From the sequence record ON645936.1: a stretch of 64,000 bases of DNA; one strand, given 5' to 3'. Position 1 is the first letter of the stretch. Every line of letters begins with the position of its first letter. The translations under genes and the position numbers were made by a program. Positions 27,302 to 35,667 of the stretch are shown piece by piece. The notes beneath the pieces are model-generated. The model did no database searches. It was given only the letters and a program-made list of their open reading frames with translations, and was not told the origin of the DNA. Source of the DNA: Escherichia phage N2.

Positions 27302-29398
27302 TTATCCTTGAACGAACTTGTAAGGCATGTTTGTAATATCTATGCAAGACGCAATAATTCCGAGAGATGATTCTGCTTTCTGTTTAACATTTGATGAAAC
27401 AAATGATGCAAAGTCAACTCTGTCTTCTATTTCAATATCACCTGTCATTGCAACTACTTCGCCGGTTTCCATTAGACGGTCACCGTCATAAATTACTGAT
27501 TCGGTGAGTTCTTCCGTAGTCATAACTTCGGCTTGAATGAGTTTTGTATTATTAAATGTTATTCCGTCATTATTAGAAGCATCAGTTATTTTGTTAACTT
27601 TGACCATCAATCCGCGCGGTAGAATAACTTCAGCTTCTGATGCTATTCCGAGACTTCCTGGATATACAACATTAACTTTATGAGCTCCATCAATTGCCCA
27701 TCCTATTTGAACTTTAACATATTCAGGATTTTCTTTATACGCTCTTATTTCGCTTGGATTAATAGTTATTCCTTCTTCATTTTTATCAACCGTTAATTCA
27801 TTGCGAGCTTCTGGTTCTAAAAGACCGATACCAGCATGTGTAATTCCAAAACGTCCAAAAATGATAGGAGTTAAAGAAGTAGATACAAAATTTCTGAAAT
27901 AGAACACTTTATTTTTAACTAGTGCTTCGTATATAGGAGCAGTCATACTTTGAGCACGATAAACTGTAATGCCTTCTGGTATACGGTCACCATTTTCAAA
28001 GGCTGAATCTAAATTATTTATCGCAGATTCAATTTCTTTTTCACTCATTACCTCATATCGTTCTGGATTGTAGCGGCCTAAAAGAAGATTATTGATGTCA
28101 GTATATCCTGCTCCACAATACTCTCTAATGCCGCGCTTTTGTGATGGAGTATATTTAGAACCATCACGGGCAATAGTAATATCAATCATTGGACCTGCAC
28201 CAACTCCAGAAAAACTATAAATCATTCGTTTGAGGAATACAGTTTTTGCTGCGTTCCAGGAATTTTTAGTTATTTCTTCCCAGACTTCATCTGACTGTCC
28301 TTTGCGGGTTTTATTATGTGTATCAAGCCAATTATCTTTATATTCTTCAAAGAATTGATTAACAGCTGCTGCGTATTTCTCTAAACATTTTATTGAAGTA
28401 GTTGGTTCATTTTTGATCGCATTAAGAATTACATCTTTAATTTTTTCAGAAACCTCATCAACCTCACTTTTTGAAACGAATTTATAGTAATGGCGAAGTT
28501 CATTTGTAGTTCCTTCGGCAATAATTTTTGCTGCCTTAGTTTTAGAAGCTAATGAATTAATTCCAAGCTTCATTTCTTCTGCTTCGGGAATTAAAGGAGC
28601 GGTAGCAGGTTTATTAAAATTGGCTGCGGTAGATTCATACTTCTGGAATAATTCGCTTTCAAATCTAGAAGATTCTAATGATTGACTTTGTGCAATTGCT
28701 CTACGGGAAATTTTAACTTTAACGATTACAGCTTGGTCAGAACGTTTATCATTTTCTTGCGCAATAGATGCTGCAATTGCCTCATTTTTAGTTACTTGAG
28801 CTCCAGTATCTTTGTTGATATAAACATCGCCGACCTTCGATTCAACTTTAGTAAAGAGCTCGGTACTAATTTCCGGAACTCCTGGAATGTCTTCTAATGA
28901 TACATTTTTGCGATGTATAAGAATATATGCATACTTTTTATCGTAATCCCAGATTTCCTTAAGAAGGACGTATCTGCCACCTGAACGACTACGGATAAGT
29001 CTATCAGCAATAACTTGAATTTGTCGAGCTTGACCAGCAGTTTTAGACTTAAGAATACGAAGCATACAAGCATCAATTTTATACTGGCGCATCGTCTGCA
29101 TTGCAACAGTAAAAACTGAATTGATATAATTAATTGGGCTTGGACCGAGACCTTTTAATTTAGCAATTGAACCTTTAGCAGTTAATGTAAAAGGAACAAT
29201 ATGCATCATTTTATCGCCCATCTTTAAATCACGGTTAGTATCACCTCCAGATGTATAGGTACATAAACGAAAGCCCGGTTGTTCAATTGCATCATCAACA
29301 TGAACTGAAAAAATTTGTGGTATTTTCTTCTTTGGATTTAAGTTTGTAATCGGAAGAGTAGTATCTTCGTCAAATAATTCTGTAATAAGTTCCATCAT
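27302..29398 (-). CDS. alt: Alt ADP-ribosyltransferase (packaged into the head)
   Basis: 698-aa ORF, T4 Alt-like; TATAAATA late promoter upstream on minus strand. Confidence 0.9.
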   Translation of the reverse strand: MMELITELFDEDTTLPITNLNPKKKIPQIFSVHVDDAIEQPGFRLCTYTSGGDTNRDLKMGDKMMHIVPFTLTAKGSIAKLKGLGPSPINYINSVFTVAMQTMRQYKIDACMLRILKSKTAGQARQIQVIADRLIRSRSGGRYVLLKEIWDYDKKYAYILIHRKNVSLEDIPGVPEISTELFTKVESKVGDVYINKDTGAQVTKNEAIAASIAQENDKRSDQAVIVKVKISRRAIAQSQSLESSRFESELFQKYESTAANFNKPATAPLIPEAEEMKLGINSLASKTKAAKIIAEGTTNELRHYYKFVSKSEVDEVSEKIKDVILNAIKNEPTTSIKCLEKYAAAVNQFFEEYKDNWLDTHNKTRKGQSDEVWEEITKNSWNAAKTVFLKRMIYSFSGVGAGPMIDITIARDGSKYTPSQKRGIREYCGAGYTDINNLLLGRYNPERYEVMSEKEIESAINNLDSAFENGDRIPEGITVYRAQSMTAPIYEALVKNKVFYFRNFVSTSLTPIIFGRFGITHAGIGLLEPEARNELTVDKNEEGITINPSEIRAYKENPEYVKVQIGWAIDGAHKVNVVYPGSLGIASEAEVILPRGLMVKVNKITDASNNDGITFNNTKLIQAEVMTTEELTESVIYDGDRLMETGEVVAMTGDIEIEDRVDFASFVSSNVKQKAESSLGIIASCIDITNMPYKFVQG

Positions 29399-29636: not shown

Positions 29637-31093
29637 AGACCAGTTACCTCATGAAAATCACCAAATACATCCTCGAATGTATTAGCTTTAGTTTTATCTT
29701 CACGTAAACGAATCGCAATCGGAAGAAATAATTTAACGTAATCAGTGCGGCCATCAGATTTTAACCAACCGTTGCATTCGCACTCTAGAATTTTTCCAAT
29801 ATAATAATTTTGGTTTTCCATAATGCGAGTACGGTCAAGTTCATGTGATTTTACACCAGCTTTATCTTTTAAGCCTGAACCTGCATTGACTTTAATTTTT
29901 CCACACTCTGATTCAAGAATAAATCCACCAGCTTTAGTAGGGTCTTTACGGTGAGGATAAATTCCTACAATTTTTAAATCAACATCAATTACTTCTTTAA
30001 ATTTATAGAGATTTTTTGAACGAGCATTTTCCCACAATCCATCTGTATTTTTGAGAATAATACCTTCAAGACCTTGGTCAATATACTTTTTATAAATTAC
30101 CTTAGCTTCATCTAGGTTATTTACTACTTGGTTTTCAATTAAAATTACTTTATCATATCCTGATGTCATTTGTTCTAGTTTAGAAAAACGTACATCATAT
30201 TTTAAACGAAACGTCGGAAGACCGTATATTTCTACTAACGGAACATAATCCCAGACCTGAAACTTCATGCATTTGGCTTCTTTTTCGGAAATGGTTCCTT
30301 TTAAGGATTTATTGGCGATTCCATTAGAAGCAGTACGAGATTCCGCTACTTCGGCGAATTCTTTAGCTTTGCTAATTTCAGGAGTGTCAAAAAGAAAATC
30401 TAGGCCTTCTGGTTCCTTTTCAACTTGCTCATGGTATACCAATTCGCCATCGATTAACACGCCTTCTGGATGAATCTGGCGGGCTTCAGCAGTCATTTTG
30501 ATTAACTCTTCCTTAAGAAGATCTAATCCTAGGTATTCATTGCCAGCTCGCGATAAAAGACGAACATCATCTAATTCATCACCTCGGACTTCAGCAAAAC
30601 ACCGAGCTCCATCTGCTTTTAACTGCGCAAAAGCTGGAAATTTGATATTCTTACTAATGCCTTTTTCATCATAAGAACTTGCAAGCATTTGAGGTTGTTC
30701 AGGAATTAAACCTGGCCAAACTTTGTTTGCAATAGATACTGAAGCACCGCATTCAAGGTCTCGCATCATAACTCGACGTAGTACTTCAACATCATCCTTT
30801 TTACCATCGGTGATATACCCAGTTAATTCCTCAATTGCTGCATTTCCAGTCAATTTCCGAGTAGCTAACGTAAATTCAATAAAGTCAAGCATATCGGTAA
30901 TGGTCAGCATTCCAAAACTCTGGGTAGCAATACCAGGCTTAGGCCATTTCTTGATATAATACTGTAACCCACGAGAATAAGTCAGACGATATACTCGTTT
31001 AAGCAATTCATTATCTTTATTCTTTTCAAGAATTGCTTGCTTCTGCTTAGTTGATCCAATAGATGCTATTTCATTCAGAATTTTAAGAATCAT
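29633..31093 (-). CDS. 30: ATP-dependent DNA ligase gp30
   Basis: 486-aa ORF; adenylation motif KADGAR; T4 DNA ligase-like N-terminus. Confidence 0.97.
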   Translation of the reverse strand: MILKILNEIASIGSTKQKQAILEKNKDNELLKRVYRLTYSRGLQYYIKKWPKPGIATQSFGMLTITDMLDFIEFTLATRKLTGNAAIEELTGYITDGKKDDVEVLRRVMMRDLECGASVSIANKVWPGLIPEQPQMLASSYDEKGISKNIKFPAFAQLKADGARCFAEVRGDELDDVRLLSRAGNEYLGLDLLKEELIKMTAEARQIHPEGVLIDGELVYHEQVEKEPEGLDFLFDTPEISKAKEFAEVAESRTASNGIANKSLKGTISEKEAKCMKFQVWDYVPLVEIYGLPTFRLKYDVRFSKLEQMTSGYDKVILIENQVVNNLDEAKVIYKKYIDQGLEGIILKNTDGLWENARSKNLYKFKEVIDVDLKIVGIYPHRKDPTKAGGFILESECGKIKVNAGSGLKDKAGVKSHELDRTRIMENQNYYIGKILECECNGWLKSDGRTDYVKLFLPIAIRLREDKTKANTFEDVFGDFHEVTGL

Positions 31094-31357
31094 TGCTCAT
31101 CCTTCAAAGTTTGGTTTACAGCTCTATTATAAATCAATTCATCATTAAGCTCAGGCAAAGACTTATGATATGTAGTTCTAACTTTATTTCCTTGCATCCA
31201 GTGCTTGACGTAAATGAAACCTTGCTCTACACATTTTTAAAAATTCGTTCGTCTTTTTGAGCTCGGAATTCTGGATTGCATCTAAAAAATTGATTTACGT
31301 GACCGTAATCACGTGTAGTATTACCTTCATTTTCATAAATAGTGTGAACGACAAACA

Positions 31358-32221
31358 TTAGAATGCTCCTTGGAAAATATTATCACCACTAGTAAATCTA
31401 TTAAAATACCCTGCATCACCAGGCTTAGTATAACTCCACGTATGGAATGGATTCATATGATACGGGTGTGTATAATATGGATTATATGGATGTGTATAAT
31501 ATGGATTATACGGATTAAATCCAGGAGTTCTCCAGGTAGTGTTCCAGCGAAAAGAATCGTTTTTAATCATCTTTTCAATTACATCTTTTATAGCTTTTTC
31601 ACTATCAAAACTTTCTTTATTTTCCTTTGGTGAAAAAAGCTTATTCTCTACATCGTTCCATGTATAAACTCGCTGAGCAGTTTTTGGAATACTGTCACGT
31701 TCCCCTCGAGCCATCCAATAAACTGGAACATTTAATATTTCACTCGCATGATCGCAGTGGTGAGCGAGATCGTCAATATAACAAATTACGTTATATTTCT
31801 CTTTTGCCTTTTTGAACAACTCTTCTTTTGAAGAATCATGGCCACACATCAGTACTTCTGAGAAGGCACCAGGAAAAAGAGCATTCAAATTAAATTGACG
31901 ATTCAGCAGAGCGTCAATAGAATCACCCAGTGCTGTAACAGCTACAAAATTATAATCTTCTTTTAATTTGTTAATTACACACAGAGCATCTTTATATGGA
32001 GACAAGTAACGAATAAAATCCGAACGATTGTATTTTTCAATTAACTTGACGCCAAGTTCTTCATCACAATTAAAAAGTTTACCAGGAGAAATAAATTTTT
32101 CATCTTGGATCATTTTTAAAATATGTTCCAACGGAAGATTATATTTCTGAGCAAAATAAGGAAGGCCTGATTGCCAGCTTAAGCATACTCCATCAATATC
32201 AGTTAAAATAGTAGGCTTCAT
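31358..32221 (-). CDS. 30.2: HAD-like hydrolase fold protein with C-terminal Tyr/Pro-rich tandem repeat (T4 30.2 position)
   Basis: 287-aa ORF; N-terminal DIDGV motif; NPYYTHPY repeated. Confidence 0.7.
   Translation of the reverse strand: MKPTILTDIDGVCLSWQSGLPYFAQKYNLPLEHILKMIQDEKFISPGKLFNCDEELGVKLIEKYNRSDFIRYLSPYKDALCVINKLKEDYNFVAVTALGDSIDALLNRQFNLNALFPGAFSEVLMCGHDSSKEELFKKAKEKYNVICYIDDLAHHCDHASEILNVPVYWMARGERDSIPKTAQRVYTWNDVENKLFSPKENKESFDSEKAIKDVIEKMIKNDSFRWNTTWRTPGFNPYNPYYTHPYNPYYTHPYHMNPFHTWSYTKPGDAGYFNRFTSGDNIFQGAF
31465..31515 (-). repeat. tandem duplication of a 24-bp unit inside the 30.2-like gene, encoding YNPYYTHP twice
   Basis: Direct repeat tgtgtataatatggattata(t/c)gga x2 on plus strand. 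Confidence 0.6.
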
Positions 32222-32682
32222 AGAGAGTCTCTTAATAGGTTTAACACATCAATAAATTCAGCTTCGGTTAGTATTGTATCATCTTTTGTTAGACCACTAG
32301 CCATGCTGTGCTTCAAAACTTTTCCTTTCGAGGCTTGTAATGCATCACGAAAACCCTTGTTTTGAATCGCTGCTTCAAAATATGCATTTGTGTATAATTC
32401 TTTCCACGCCGGAGAGTATCTTGAAAACGGAACTCCAAGCCAGAAGAGGGTCCCACGGTCCTGAGCTCTAGCATAAGACCTTCCAGCTTGTTGAGCGGCA
32501 AGCCCGGATAACCCAAATATACGACGTTGTTGTTCAACATTTTTCACCTTGCATCCTTGGAGGAATCCTTCAAGACCTCCAAATTGAATACCATCCATAA
32601 CGAAAGGCCATTGGGCGAAATTGCTTAATGCACATGATGGCCATCTAAAATTGCTTCTTATCTCTAGCTCAGACATTTTCAA
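32218..32682 (-). CDS. 30.3: NADAR (YbiA/DUF1768-like) domain protein (T4 30.3 position)
   Basis: 154-aa ORF with NADAR-like conserved pattern (LSNF..PF..DG..F...E.F.Q..K). Confidence 0.75.
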   Translation of the reverse strand: MKMSELEIRSNFRWPSCALSNFAQWPFVMDGIQFGGLEGFLQGCKVKNVEQQRRIFGLSGLAAQQAGRSYARAQDRGTLFWLGVPFSRYSPAWKELYTNAYFEAAIQNKGFRDALQASKGKVLKHSMASGLTKDDTILTEAEFIDVLNLLRDSL

Positions 32683-32875
32683 TACTTATAATTTCAACAT
32701 CAGCCCAATGACCATAGCAAGGAAGACGAAATTCAACTGGCCAGTTAGGGTCCTTTTCTAATATAATAGACTTAACTTGCGGTTCTTCGTGTTCATCAGT
32801 ATACGGACCTTTATACGTTACTTTATATGTGACCTTAATGTACTGAATTCCAAAAATCTTATTAATTATATTCAT
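32669..32875 (-). CDS. hypothetical protein
   Basis: 68-aa ORF in tightly packed early operon. Confidence 0.5.
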   Translation of the reverse strand: MNIINKIFGIQYIKVTYKVTYKGPYTDEHEEPQVKSIILEKDPNWPVEFRLPCYGHWADVEIISIENV

Positions 32876-33069
32876 ACTAATTCCTTTAATCCATAGATAG
32901 GAGATAATTCATCACCCATACGAAGGTCTTCATTTCCATCTACCCAAGAAACAATATAAGCCTCTTTTATTTGAATACCACTCCATTTAAATGGAGGTAG
33001 AACCTTAGAAATTAATCCAGGTATACCAACTCCCTTTAATTCAACAGTTTGACCTAAAAAGAATTTCAT
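32872..33069 (-). CDS. hypothetical protein
   Basis: 65-aa ORF; start/stop overlap with neighbours. Confidence 0.5.
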   Translation of the reverse strand: MKFFLGQTVELKGVGIPGLISKVLPPFKWSGIQIKEAYIVSWVDGNEDLRMGDELSPIYGLKELV

Positions 33070-33356
33070 TAAAACCTCATCTGAAACCCGTGTGATTTAA
33101 CATTACCGCCACCAATATCAGAAATGTTAATTTCACGCGCAATTGAAGGGTCAATATCAATTTCACGATTGAGTTTAGTGATAGCTAGGGTATCACGGCC
33201 ATTTACAGTACGGAACTCTAAAGGGCAGACTACATTAACGTAGTTTTTAATCGATTCACTGGTAGGCTGCAAATGAGCAGGAAGGTCTTTAGGTGCCTTT
33301 GAGAAAACCACTTCACAGAAATTTTTGCGGGTATCAAAATAAGTAGTCATAAACAT
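33069..33356 (-). CDS. hypothetical protein
   Basis: 95-aa ORF with SD. Confidence 0.55.
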   Translation of the reverse strand: MFMTTYFDTRKNFCEVVFSKAPKDLPAHLQPTSESIKNYVNVVCPLEFRTVNGRDTLAITKLNREIDIDPSIAREINISDIGGGNVKSHGFQMRF

Positions 33357-33397
33357 AATATTTTCCTCAATAGGGGGCCGAAGCCCCTCATTTTATT

Positions 33398-33775
33398 TTA
33401 AATATCAAATTCGTTAAGAACTACATCAAAGATTGCTTCAAGATGCTCAGGTTTAGCTCTATTACTCAGAATATGACGAATCCAAGTTTTAACCAGAAGC
33501 TTACGATTAACGCCATTCCAGCAAGGATGAGTCCCTAAATCGCGTTGACGAAAATCATCATCTAATGCGATTTTAAAAGAAGAACCTTCTTTCGTGATTG
33601 AAACCGTGATGCCATTTTCAAATCGCATATAAACGTAGTTAGGAGTCATATACTGTTCAATTTCGCATACTGATCCATTTTGATGTTTCCAAAGGCAGAT
33701 AGTATCAATAGAACCTGCAATACCATTAGAAACATATTTACGTTCAAAGTTGATGTAGTTCATTTTATTCTCCAA
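33398..33775 (-). CDS. hypothetical protein
   Basis: 125-aa ORF; early promoter and SD upstream. Confidence 0.55.
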   Translation of the reverse strand: MENKMNYINFERKYVSNGIAGSIDTICLWKHQNGSVCEIEQYMTPNYVYMRFENGITVSITKEGSSFKIALDDDFRQRDLGTHPCWNGVNRKLLVKTWIRHILSNRAKPEHLEAIFDVVLNEFDI

Positions 33776-33799
33776 GGTGTTTAATTGCGGTACAGGTAT

Positions 33800-33828
33800 A
33801 TAATATCATATCCTGTACCAAAGTAAAC
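33800..33828 (-). promoter_or_regulatory. early promoter (GTTTAC-N17-TATTAT)
   Basis: Upstream of ORF 33398..33775. Confidence 0.5.
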
Positions 33829-33830
33829 AA

Positions 33831-34163
33831 TTATTTTACTACTTTCCAATGCTGCATGTCAAGTTTACCAACTTTTTTCATCTTCTCAATTAAGCGTTCG
33901 GCACGTTGGCGAGCTGTAACATAATGCCATTCGCCTAATTCATTTTGTTCAATTTTTCCAACGATTACTGTATTCAATTCATAAATCCAACCAGTAAAGA
34001 AATTATGAACTTGGATTGCAAAGGTGAAATCTGTTCCCATACCTTCTGTTGTTTCTACTTCAATAATATCACCTTCAACTGCCATTAAGAACCACATAGT
34101 TTCATCATATTTACCATTGAAGCATTTAGTTTTAACTGTAGCGTTCAGATTAATCGTTTTCAT
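33831..34163 (-). CDS. hypothetical protein
   Basis: 110-aa ORF; early promoter and SD upstream. Confidence 0.55.
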   Translation of the reverse strand: MKTINLNATVKTKCFNGKYDETMWFLMAVEGDIIEVETTEGMGTDFTFAIQVHNFFTGWIYELNTVIVGKIEQNELGEWHYVTARQRAERLIEKMKKVGKLDMQHWKVVK

Positions 34164-34191
34164 TTTATTCTCCTTTGTTGGTGTAAGATAA

Positions 34192-34220
34192 TACTATCAC
34201 AAAGGAACCATACTGTAAAC
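34192..34220 (-). promoter_or_regulatory. early promoter (GTTTAC-N17-ATAGTA)
   Basis: Upstream of ORF 33831..34163. Confidence 0.5.
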
Positions 34221-34239
34221 AACTTTATGCAATCTTTGG

Positions 34240-34268
34240 AAAATAAAAAAGGACTCCCGAAGGAGTCC
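34240..34268 (-). terminator. rho-independent terminator on minus strand
   Basis: GGACUCC-UUCG-GGAGUCC followed by UUUUUUAUUUU. Confidence 0.65.
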
Positions 34269-34273
34269 TCAAC

Positions 34274-34450
34274 TTATGCTTTCTGCTTACCAAAACGAGA
34301 AGCATCATCTCGAAGAACCGCACGTGCTCGGCGCATGATCTTCTCAACAGTTTGATTGATACGAGAGTTCGACCCACGCTTGTAGCCAGCGCGTTTAGAA
34401 TCACCAACTTTCTTTTCAACTGCTTTCTTTGCTTTAGCTTGTTTTGCCAT
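34274..34450 (-). CDS. small lysine/arginine-rich basic protein
   Basis: ORF from MAKQAKAKK; followed by terminator hairpin. Confidence 0.5.
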   Translation of the reverse strand: MAKQAKAKKAVEKKVGDSKRAGYKRGSNSRINQTVEKIMRRARAVLRDDASRFGKQKA

Positions 34451-34569
34451 TATAAATTCTCTTTTAAATGAAAATGCAGGACTTATTGGCATTGCCTGCG
34501 CAAGCCCTCAAGGGGAACATAGGTTTTGAATATTTACCGACAGGATAACCATAAACCTCGTCAACATAA

Positions 34570-34818
34570 TTACTTCAGTGTTACCACAAAGTGACGAACT
34601 GCTTTTCGTGCAGCAGAAGCCAGAGGCTTAGCATATTTAAGTTCATCTTTTTCCTGAAGCTCAGCAGCTAATGCAGTTTGAGCAGGATTCAGATGTTTGA
34701 AATAACGCAGGATTTCAAGAGCTTCGGCTTCAACATCAATAGATGCGCCATAGTTTTCGTGACCATTATTCCATGCGTTTCGTTGCAGTTCAAGAGCGTG
34801 TTGTAATTGTTTAATCAT
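34570..34818 (-). CDS. rIII: rIII lysis inhibition accessory protein
   Basis: 82-aa ORF with T4 rIII-like sequence and position before gene 31. Confidence 0.88.
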   Translation of the reverse strand: MIKQLQHALELQRNAWNNGHENYGASIDVEAEALEILRYFKHLNPAQTALAAELQEKDELKYAKPLASAARKAVRHFVVTLK

Positions 34819-34965
34819 TTAAAAATTCTCGTTAGAGATTAAAACTCGGTAGTCACGTTCTTCTGAATTTCATCTTCTTTCGACAGATCTCTCAGTTGTA
34901 GACTACCACATAGAATTGTTCGGTTAACTTATTATTCCGACACCCAATTCATATTATTATTTATA

Positions 34966-35301
34966 TCACTTATAAAGACACGGAATAGCTTTATAGTGAC
35001 AGGTAACAAATTTTTGTTTAATTTCTTTTGGCTGCTTAAGACCCAGAGCTACAAAAGGATGTGGAACGTTTCGAATTTGACCAACTGGAAGAGAAGTCAA
35101 ATCACCAACTTCGCAGAAACCTTCAGGAACATCAGGACCAACAGAGTGAATTACACACAGTTCAGGAACTTCACCTTGAACACGTTTACCGATAATAAGT
35201 CCTGATTCTGTAACTTCTTCATCACCGGCTTGTGCAGGTTCAGAAACTAAAATAACATATTCACCGACAGCACGAATTGGTAGCTGTTGTACTTCAGACA
35301 T
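34966..35301 (-). CDS. 31: co-chaperonin gp31 (GroES analogue)
   Basis: 111-aa ORF with T4 gp31-like sequence. Confidence 0.95.
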
Positions 35302-35358
35302 CGTTTTTCCTTTTTTGTTAACAGATAAATTAATAATAACAAATAATTCTTAAAGCAT

Positions 35359-35667
35359 TTATTTACCAATAAATTGGAGCAAATGCTTAACTTTCATACC
35401 ATTAACAGAAATCAATTTGTCAATAGAAAAACCTCGCCAAGCGCCAAGTTCAACATCAAATACTGGAATCATATCCGTAGATTCTTTCCGAGTAGATTCA
35501 GTCAATTTACCAGTTTGCATGGTTGGCATAAAGTCTGCATCACGAGTACCTTTCATAGTACGAATAGTACCATCAGACTTTTCAAAAACTACGTTTGAAA
35601 CACCCATGGACAATTTAGTTTTCAAAATTTCACGAATTGCTACTTTCTGTTCAGTTGTCAATTTCAT
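35359..35667 (-). CDS. hypothetical protein (T4 31.1 position)
   Basis: 102-aa ORF. Confidence 0.6.
   Translation of the reverse strand: MKLTTEQKVAIREILKTKLSMGVSNVVFEKSDGTIRTMKGTRDADFMPTMQTGKLTESTRKESTDMIPVFDVELGAWRGFSIDKLISVNGMKVKHLLQFIGK

Follow-up and report, generated by a model that had tools for sequence, protein, structure and literature searches.

An intact adfN (gene 30.3) allele in Escherichia phage N2 and the predicted NADAR fold of its product

The adfN locus

The window that we analysed comprises 64,000 nt of Escherichia phage N2 (ON645936.1), and all positions are counted from its start. Its minus strand contains an uninterrupted open frame at 32218..32682, which the first-pass annotation had described as encoding a 154-aa product (154 codons counted from a TTG). 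The ORF is real, but its start most likely has to be moved to an ATG at 32676, two codons further inside, which yields a protein of 152 aa. We prefer this ATG because T4 gene 30.3 in RefSeq (459 nt) starts at the equivalent codon, and because the published numbering of residues E36 and K43 (PMC11825919) fits only this start. The gene and its immediate surroundings are as follows:

32218..32676, minus strand: adfN, orthologous to gene 30.3 of T4 (stop codon 32218-32220); its predicted product is a phage-type NADAR of 152 aa that acts as a DNA guanine ADP-ribosylglycohydrolase
32677..32682, minus strand: extra codons TTG AAA upstream of the ATG, probably not translated (judging from the T4 annotation, the E36/K43 numbering and the sequence itself)
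32669..32875, minus strand: gene 30.4; its stop and the start of adfN share 8 nt (ATGTCTGA)
31358..32221, minus strand: gene 30.2; its start and the stop of adfN share 4 nt (ATGA), and it encodes a putative HAD-fold hydrolase ending in a disordered tail rich in Pro, Tyr and Asn

The adfN product is identical to gp30.3 of T4 (RefSeq NP_049816) at 151 of 152 positions; the alignment is full-length, with no frameshift relative to T4, and the sole change is I125M. This residue is two positions away from His123, and Met is frequent there in our family alignment of 60 sequences. With the Pfam family PF08010 (Phage_30_3, "Bacteriophage protein GP30.3"; cut-off 36) the protein scores 235.3 bits and aligns to the complete model (positions 1-138 of 138). 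Exactly the same protein is listed for 135 contigs under the name "hypothetical protein" and occurs in many sequenced Tequatrovirus genomes, and the 2.1-kb region around the gene is 96-97% identical to many genomes of this genus. Compared with L007, from among the relatives that are ~85% identical, adfN shows 50 synonymous and 22 non-synonymous codon changes; the excess of synonymous changes indicates that the frame is under purifying selection, and hence that it is a coding gene and no chance ORF. The 90%-identity protein cluster that includes the window protein also holds 30.2 proteins of 278-284 aa, one of them as the representative, which is presumably a clustering artefact.

Gene 30.2 is annotated as hypothetical and has no Pfam match. 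Its profile matches 5'(3')-deoxyribonucleotidase (E 0.0095), residues D8, D10, K132, D150 and D151 are invariant, and the DxD, K and DD motifs are intact. The C-terminal tail is predicted to be disordered and, relative to T4, carries a 30-nt tandem duplication (insertion at ~31469-31498) that repeats PYNPYYTH. All 13 close loci retain the 4-nt overlap with adfN, but only one distant locus does. A literature search on the function of 30.2 returned nothing relevant.

Further along, gene 30.1 (DUF3045; 31094-31358, minus strand) is frameshifted: it has A5 at 31234-31238, whereas the run is A6 in T4 and in four close relatives. The frameshift leaves a 43-aa ORF, and the remaining T4-like protein is intact in another frame, so that either the homopolymer was misread in sequencing or the mutation is very recent. 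Inside adfN, in another frame, there is also an intact 75-codon ORF, 30.3' (32313-32540, minus strand), for which the T4 annotation gives an internal translation product. We do not regard it as a second, conserved product: its ATG is lost in 8 of the 13 close loci (replaced by ACG or ATx), a further locus, L012, has an internal stop, and its amino-acid identity (47/76) has decayed faster than that of the main frame (65/76).

A scan of positions 31000-35500 for promoters and terminators gave matches not above the shuffled expectation and no clear signal for adfN. The best sigma-70-like match (33833-33862, minus strand; TTGACA, 18 nt, TAAAAT, 11/12) is located at the 3' end of 30.8 and directed toward 30.7-30.3; adfN may be transcribed from it as an early promoter. 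The 30.7-30.6 intergenic gap contains a perfect G+C-rich hairpin (GGGGGCCGAAGCCCC) at 33373-33388, which the scan marked as a possible terminator for the plus strand alone; the genes there run on the minus strand.

Assignment to the NADAR superfamily

The first-pass annotation attributed a YbiA/NADAR signature to this protein. The signature is present as far as profile and fold methods are concerned, but it is invisible to a direct Pfam search: the adfN product does not match the NADAR family PF08719 even at E <= 10, and retrieves only PF08010 and a noise match. Other searches with the single protein were negative as well, with nothing relevant found by phmmer among all PDB chains (one irrelevant match at E 0.6) and no match in NCBIfam. 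PADLOC detected neither adfN nor either of its neighbour genes, and the PHROGs assignment is phrog_652, labelled "unknown function". Since these searches fail and Pfam keeps the protein in the separate family PF08010, membership in the NADAR superfamily is argued here from profile and fold comparisons.

With the family alignment of 60 sequences (A2) as a profile, a search identified E. coli YbiA (2b3w) with an E-value of 0.005. Pfam NADAR is matched at E <= 0.01 by 8 of the 60 members, although none of them reaches the gathering threshold of PF08719 (35.1 bits; best score 32.3 bits). Profile-profile comparison of A2 with YbiA by hhalign gave a probability of 94% and E 1.3e-7 over 91 columns, and pairwise BLAST with YbiA revealed a common ungapped N-terminal motif, SNFAxWP..DG......E.(Y/F)FQ..K, in which 12 of 28 positions are identical. 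An AlphaFold2 model derived from A2 (pLDDT 93, pTM 0.88) matches 2b3w in Foldseek (E 5.8e-5) and has the predicted YbiA fold, i.e. a helical core with small beta-sheets at its flanks. The hhalign and Foldseek results and the motif shared with YbiA bear out the original proposal of a NADAR-domain protein and confirm, at the level of profiles and predicted structure, that the adfN product is a minimal NADAR-fold enzyme composed of the core domain only.

Active site and C-terminal helix

Alignment and modelling place the following elements in the gene:

32569..32571, minus strand: Glu36 codon GAA, invariant in the 60 family members, aligned to YbiA E48
32548..32550, minus strand: Lys43 codon AAG, at least 90% conserved in the family, aligned to YbiA K55
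32308..32310, minus strand: His123 codon CAC, invariant in the 60 sequences, in the last beta-strand (predicted, residues 120-123)
32302..32304, minus strand: codon 125, ATG (Met; Ile in T4 AdfN), from the alignment to T4 gp30.3
32221..32265, minus strand: C-terminal alpha-helix, residues 138-152, predicted from the model as helical over 138-151; intact, with full-length alignment to T4

Glu36 is equivalent to E48 of YbiA, E43 of the Phytophthora nicotianae (Pn) NADAR and E88 of the E. coli C7 NADAR, and the Glu at the Pn E43/C7 E88 position coordinates the distal ribose (PMC11543638). Lys43 is equivalent to YbiA K55, Pn K50 and C7 K95; the Lys at the Pn K50/C7 K95 position coordinates the phosphates, and K95 is essential in the C7 enzyme (PMC11543638). 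The alignment from hhalign ends by pairing K122 with YbiA V124, so that H123 falls on YbiA E125. The residue in this last strand is Glu in YbiA-type, Asp in DarG1-type and His in phage NADARs (PMC11125620, PMC11543638, PMC12945103), and the His is a published hallmark of the gp30.3 NADAR subfamily (PMC11125620, PMC11543638). Judged by its PF08010 match, the last-strand His and a core-only architecture with a C-terminal helix, the window protein belongs to the phage NADAR (gp30.3) family of the AdfN-T4 type.

Comparison with known NADAR systems

The closest known relative is T4 AdfN, which agrees with the window protein in length, in E36, K43 and H123, in the C-terminal helix and in the flanking genes (30.4 upstream and 30.2 downstream, both overlapping), and differs from it by one conservative change, I125M. 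The orthologue at the same locus of RB69 is a naturally defective allele: a T insertion at nt 411 removes the last 15 residues, i.e. the C-terminal helix, whereas the window allele is full length. The RB69 truncation reduces activity, and RB69 is sensitive to DarTG1 (PMC11825919).

The DarG1 antitoxins (E. coli C7 NADAR; Geobacter lovleyi NADAR, PDB 8bat) are associated with DarT1, whereas adfN has no adjacent DarT gene. They possess an N-terminal extension that is absent from AdfN (152 aa, compared with 219 residues in the G. lovleyi chain); the NADAR motif begins at residue 17 of AdfN and thus leaves little room for such an extension. Their catalytic Asp in the last strand is His123 in AdfN, and AdfN cannot substitute for them as an antitoxin in uninfected cells (PMC11825919). 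With 30.4 and 30.2 as neighbours, no PADLOC match, no N-terminal extension and His rather than Asp, we rejected identification of the window protein as a DarG1 antitoxin.

E. coli YbiA (2b3w) and the P. nicotianae NADAR (PDB 8bau) are 18-20% identical to AdfN. Members of the YbiA family have Glu in the last strand where AdfN has His (His123 at the position of YbiA E125), and on this basis we also rejected membership in the YbiA subfamily. YbiA has a riboflavin-related housekeeping role and does not protect against DarT1 in vivo (PMC11125620, PMC11543638).

Finally, AdfN-Bas32 and AdfN-Bas60 from T5-like and Vequintavirinae phages are, like AdfN, orphan phage NADARs that reverse DarT1 modification of guanine, but unlike AdfN-T4 they come from other, independently acquired NADAR clades and are active even when no phage is infecting the cell; the T4-type enzyme depends on the T-even context (PMC11825919).

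Function of AdfN

The first-pass annotation considered the function of this protein as not established in T4-like phages, a statement that is now outdated: it was published in 2024-2025, and UniProt names the T4 protein "Anti-DarT factor NADAR" (NADAR_BPT4). Johannesman et al. [quoted passage not shown] T4 and T2 mutants deleted for adfN form no plaques on hosts with DarTG1, and RB69 is fully rescued there when adfN is supplied ectopically; to overcome this system T4 and T2 require the gene, and for RB69 it is enough (PMC11825919). Purified AdfN-T4 strips ADP-ribose from DNA in vitro and its E36A variant does not; the catalytic mutants E36A and K43A are impaired, and in vivo they still rescue RB69 partially (PMC11825919). 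The anti-DarT role that had been proposed from the sequence is thus upheld by the T4 and T2 deletions, the RB69 rescue and the in vitro de-ADP-ribosylation by a 99%-identical protein (PMC11825919, PMC11125620).

The specificity is narrow: AdfN acts against DarTG1 (guanine) only and leaves the thymine-specific DarTG2 unaffected (PMC11825919), and in vitro the T4 NADAR is guanine-specific and does not cleave thymidine-linked ADP-ribose (PMC11125620), nor is it active on cytidine-linked ADP-ribose (PMC12945103). According to the introduction of the latter paper, RNA carrying guanine-linked ADP-ribose is a further in vitro substrate of NADARs (PMC12945103), and AdfN might clear guanine ADP-ribosylation of RNA too, or marks from further toxins. 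The 2024 paper in Toxins gives its "T4 phage NADAR (gp30.3)" construct as residues 1-208, whereas T4 gp30.3 has 152 aa (PMC11125620).

We conclude that the window gene is very probably adfN, encoding a NADAR DNA ADP-ribosylglycohydrolase that reverses the guanine-ADP-ribose placed by DarT1 on phage DNA. According to the proposed mechanism, in a host with the DarTG1 toxin-antitoxin system the DarT1 toxin would attach ADP-ribose to N2 of guanine in phage DNA and thereby block its replication; AdfN would hydrolyse the guanine-ADP-ribose bond and free the ADP-ribose, so that replication could go on. Glu36 would position the distal ribose, Lys43 would hold the phosphates, and His123 would take the position of the catalytic Glu/Asp of other NADARs. 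Activity and phenotype in this picture are those of the T4 protein as reported in the literature; identity, fold, catalytic residues and the intact C-terminal helix are our observations on the window allele.

Gene neighbourhood and a possible accessory factor of AdfN

The gene order around adfN is that of T4: 31, rIII, 30.9 to 30.4, 30.3, 30.2, 30.1, 30 (ligase), alt.1, alt. The first-pass annotation had remarked on the closeness of alt, and indeed alt (27302..29398) is situated 2.8 kb away on the same minus strand, with 30.2, the frameshifted 30.1, gene 30 and alt.1 in between. The alt allele itself is a mosaic relative to T4 Alt (69% identity overall, 698 vs 682 aa), with residues 1-250 and the last ~100 near-identical and the middle, including the catalytic region, strongly diverged; loci L002 and L003 have the same allele type.

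We compared the neighbours of adfN with T4 proteins in 80 viral loci encoding a homologue, 66 of them "distant", i.e. with a homologue less than 60% identical. Within 6 kb in these 66 loci we found ligase in 8, 30.2 in 7, cd in 7, gp31 in 6 and Alt in 2. A widely conserved neighbour that could give a clue to the AdfN cofactor was sought among the distant loci and none emerged, ligase (8/66) being the best; the sharing of ligase, 30.2, cd and gp31 can be attributed to the T4-core gene order. With Alt nearby in only 2 of the 66, the proximity of adfN and alt reflects local T4 gene order and no functional linkage. We therefore dropped the idea of a functional adfN-alt link, and the earlier suggestion, prompted by the closeness of alt, that the protein takes part in the phage's own ADP-ribosylation finds no support.

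The target of Alt is arginine on proteins, which counts against the view that AdfN modulates the phage's own ADP-ribosylation by removing from host proteins or RNA the marks that Alt, ModA or ModB leave there. The location of alt on the same strand and the in vitro activity of NADARs on guanine-linked ADP-ribose of RNA (PMC12945103, introduction) would agree with such a role. However, four genes separate adfN from an alt gene that is rarely nearby in distant loci, the reported substrates of the T4 NADAR are guanine-linked ADP-ribose on DNA (PMC11125620) and RNA (PMC12945103), it is inactive on the thymidine- and cytidine-linked forms (PMC11125620, PMC12945103), and DarTG1 fully accounts for the deletion phenotype (PMC11825919). 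We consider this view highly unlikely.

Hydrolysis of guanine-ADP-ribose, our preferred reading, nevertheless does not by itself explain the action of AdfN-T4, since the protein fails to neutralise DarT1 in uninfected E. coli (PMC11125620, PMC11825919) and rescues T5 and Bas25 only weakly (PMC11825919). DNA hypermodification is not required, and Johannesman et al. inferred an additional T-even factor for full activity (PMC11825919). This factor could be a conserved neighbour of adfN, the leading candidate being 30.2, with which AdfN would form a two-gene repair module; we regard this as improbable, but if true, 30.2 could for example localise AdfN or dispose of the released ADP-ribose.

Partial rescue of RB69 by the E36A and K43A variants, together with another phage NADAR cited by the same authors as independent of enzymatic activity (PMC11825919), could instead suggest that AdfN acts mainly without catalysis and, in the manner of AdfA, binds or sequesters DarT1 or the DNA that it targets. 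Against this, a bacterial two-hybrid assay detected no binding between AdfN and DarT1, and E36A loses de-ADP-ribosylation in vitro (PMC11825919). The equivalent E88A substitution in the E. coli C7 NADAR has a minor effect only (PMC11543638), which can explain the partial rescue by E36A, and we give a mainly non-catalytic mode of action almost no weight. That AdfN is instead a YbiA-type housekeeping N-glycosidase, which destroys reactive riboflavin-pathway intermediates as described for E. coli YbiA and is no DNA repair enzyme, is extremely unlikely given the replacement of YbiA E125 by His, the position of the gp30.3 cluster nearest to the DarG1 antitoxins in the published phylogeny, and the DNA de-ADP-ribosylation and DarTG1 phenotype demonstrated for the T4 protein (PMC11825919).

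Conclusions

From its near-identity to T4 AdfN, we infer that the I125M allele of phage N2 behaves like the T4 protein, and since the allele is intact, phage N2 should resist DarTG1, unlike RB69. For the genome, the practical value of this analysis is the annotation of adfN. The case also shows that reading the sequence alone can lead to the correct function of a gene that remains hypothetical or unknown in GenBank, in PHROGs and in the name of its Pfam family. The underlying biology is already known from the published work, namely that DNA modified by DarT1 is repaired by an orphan enzyme of T-even phages that resembles an antitoxin.
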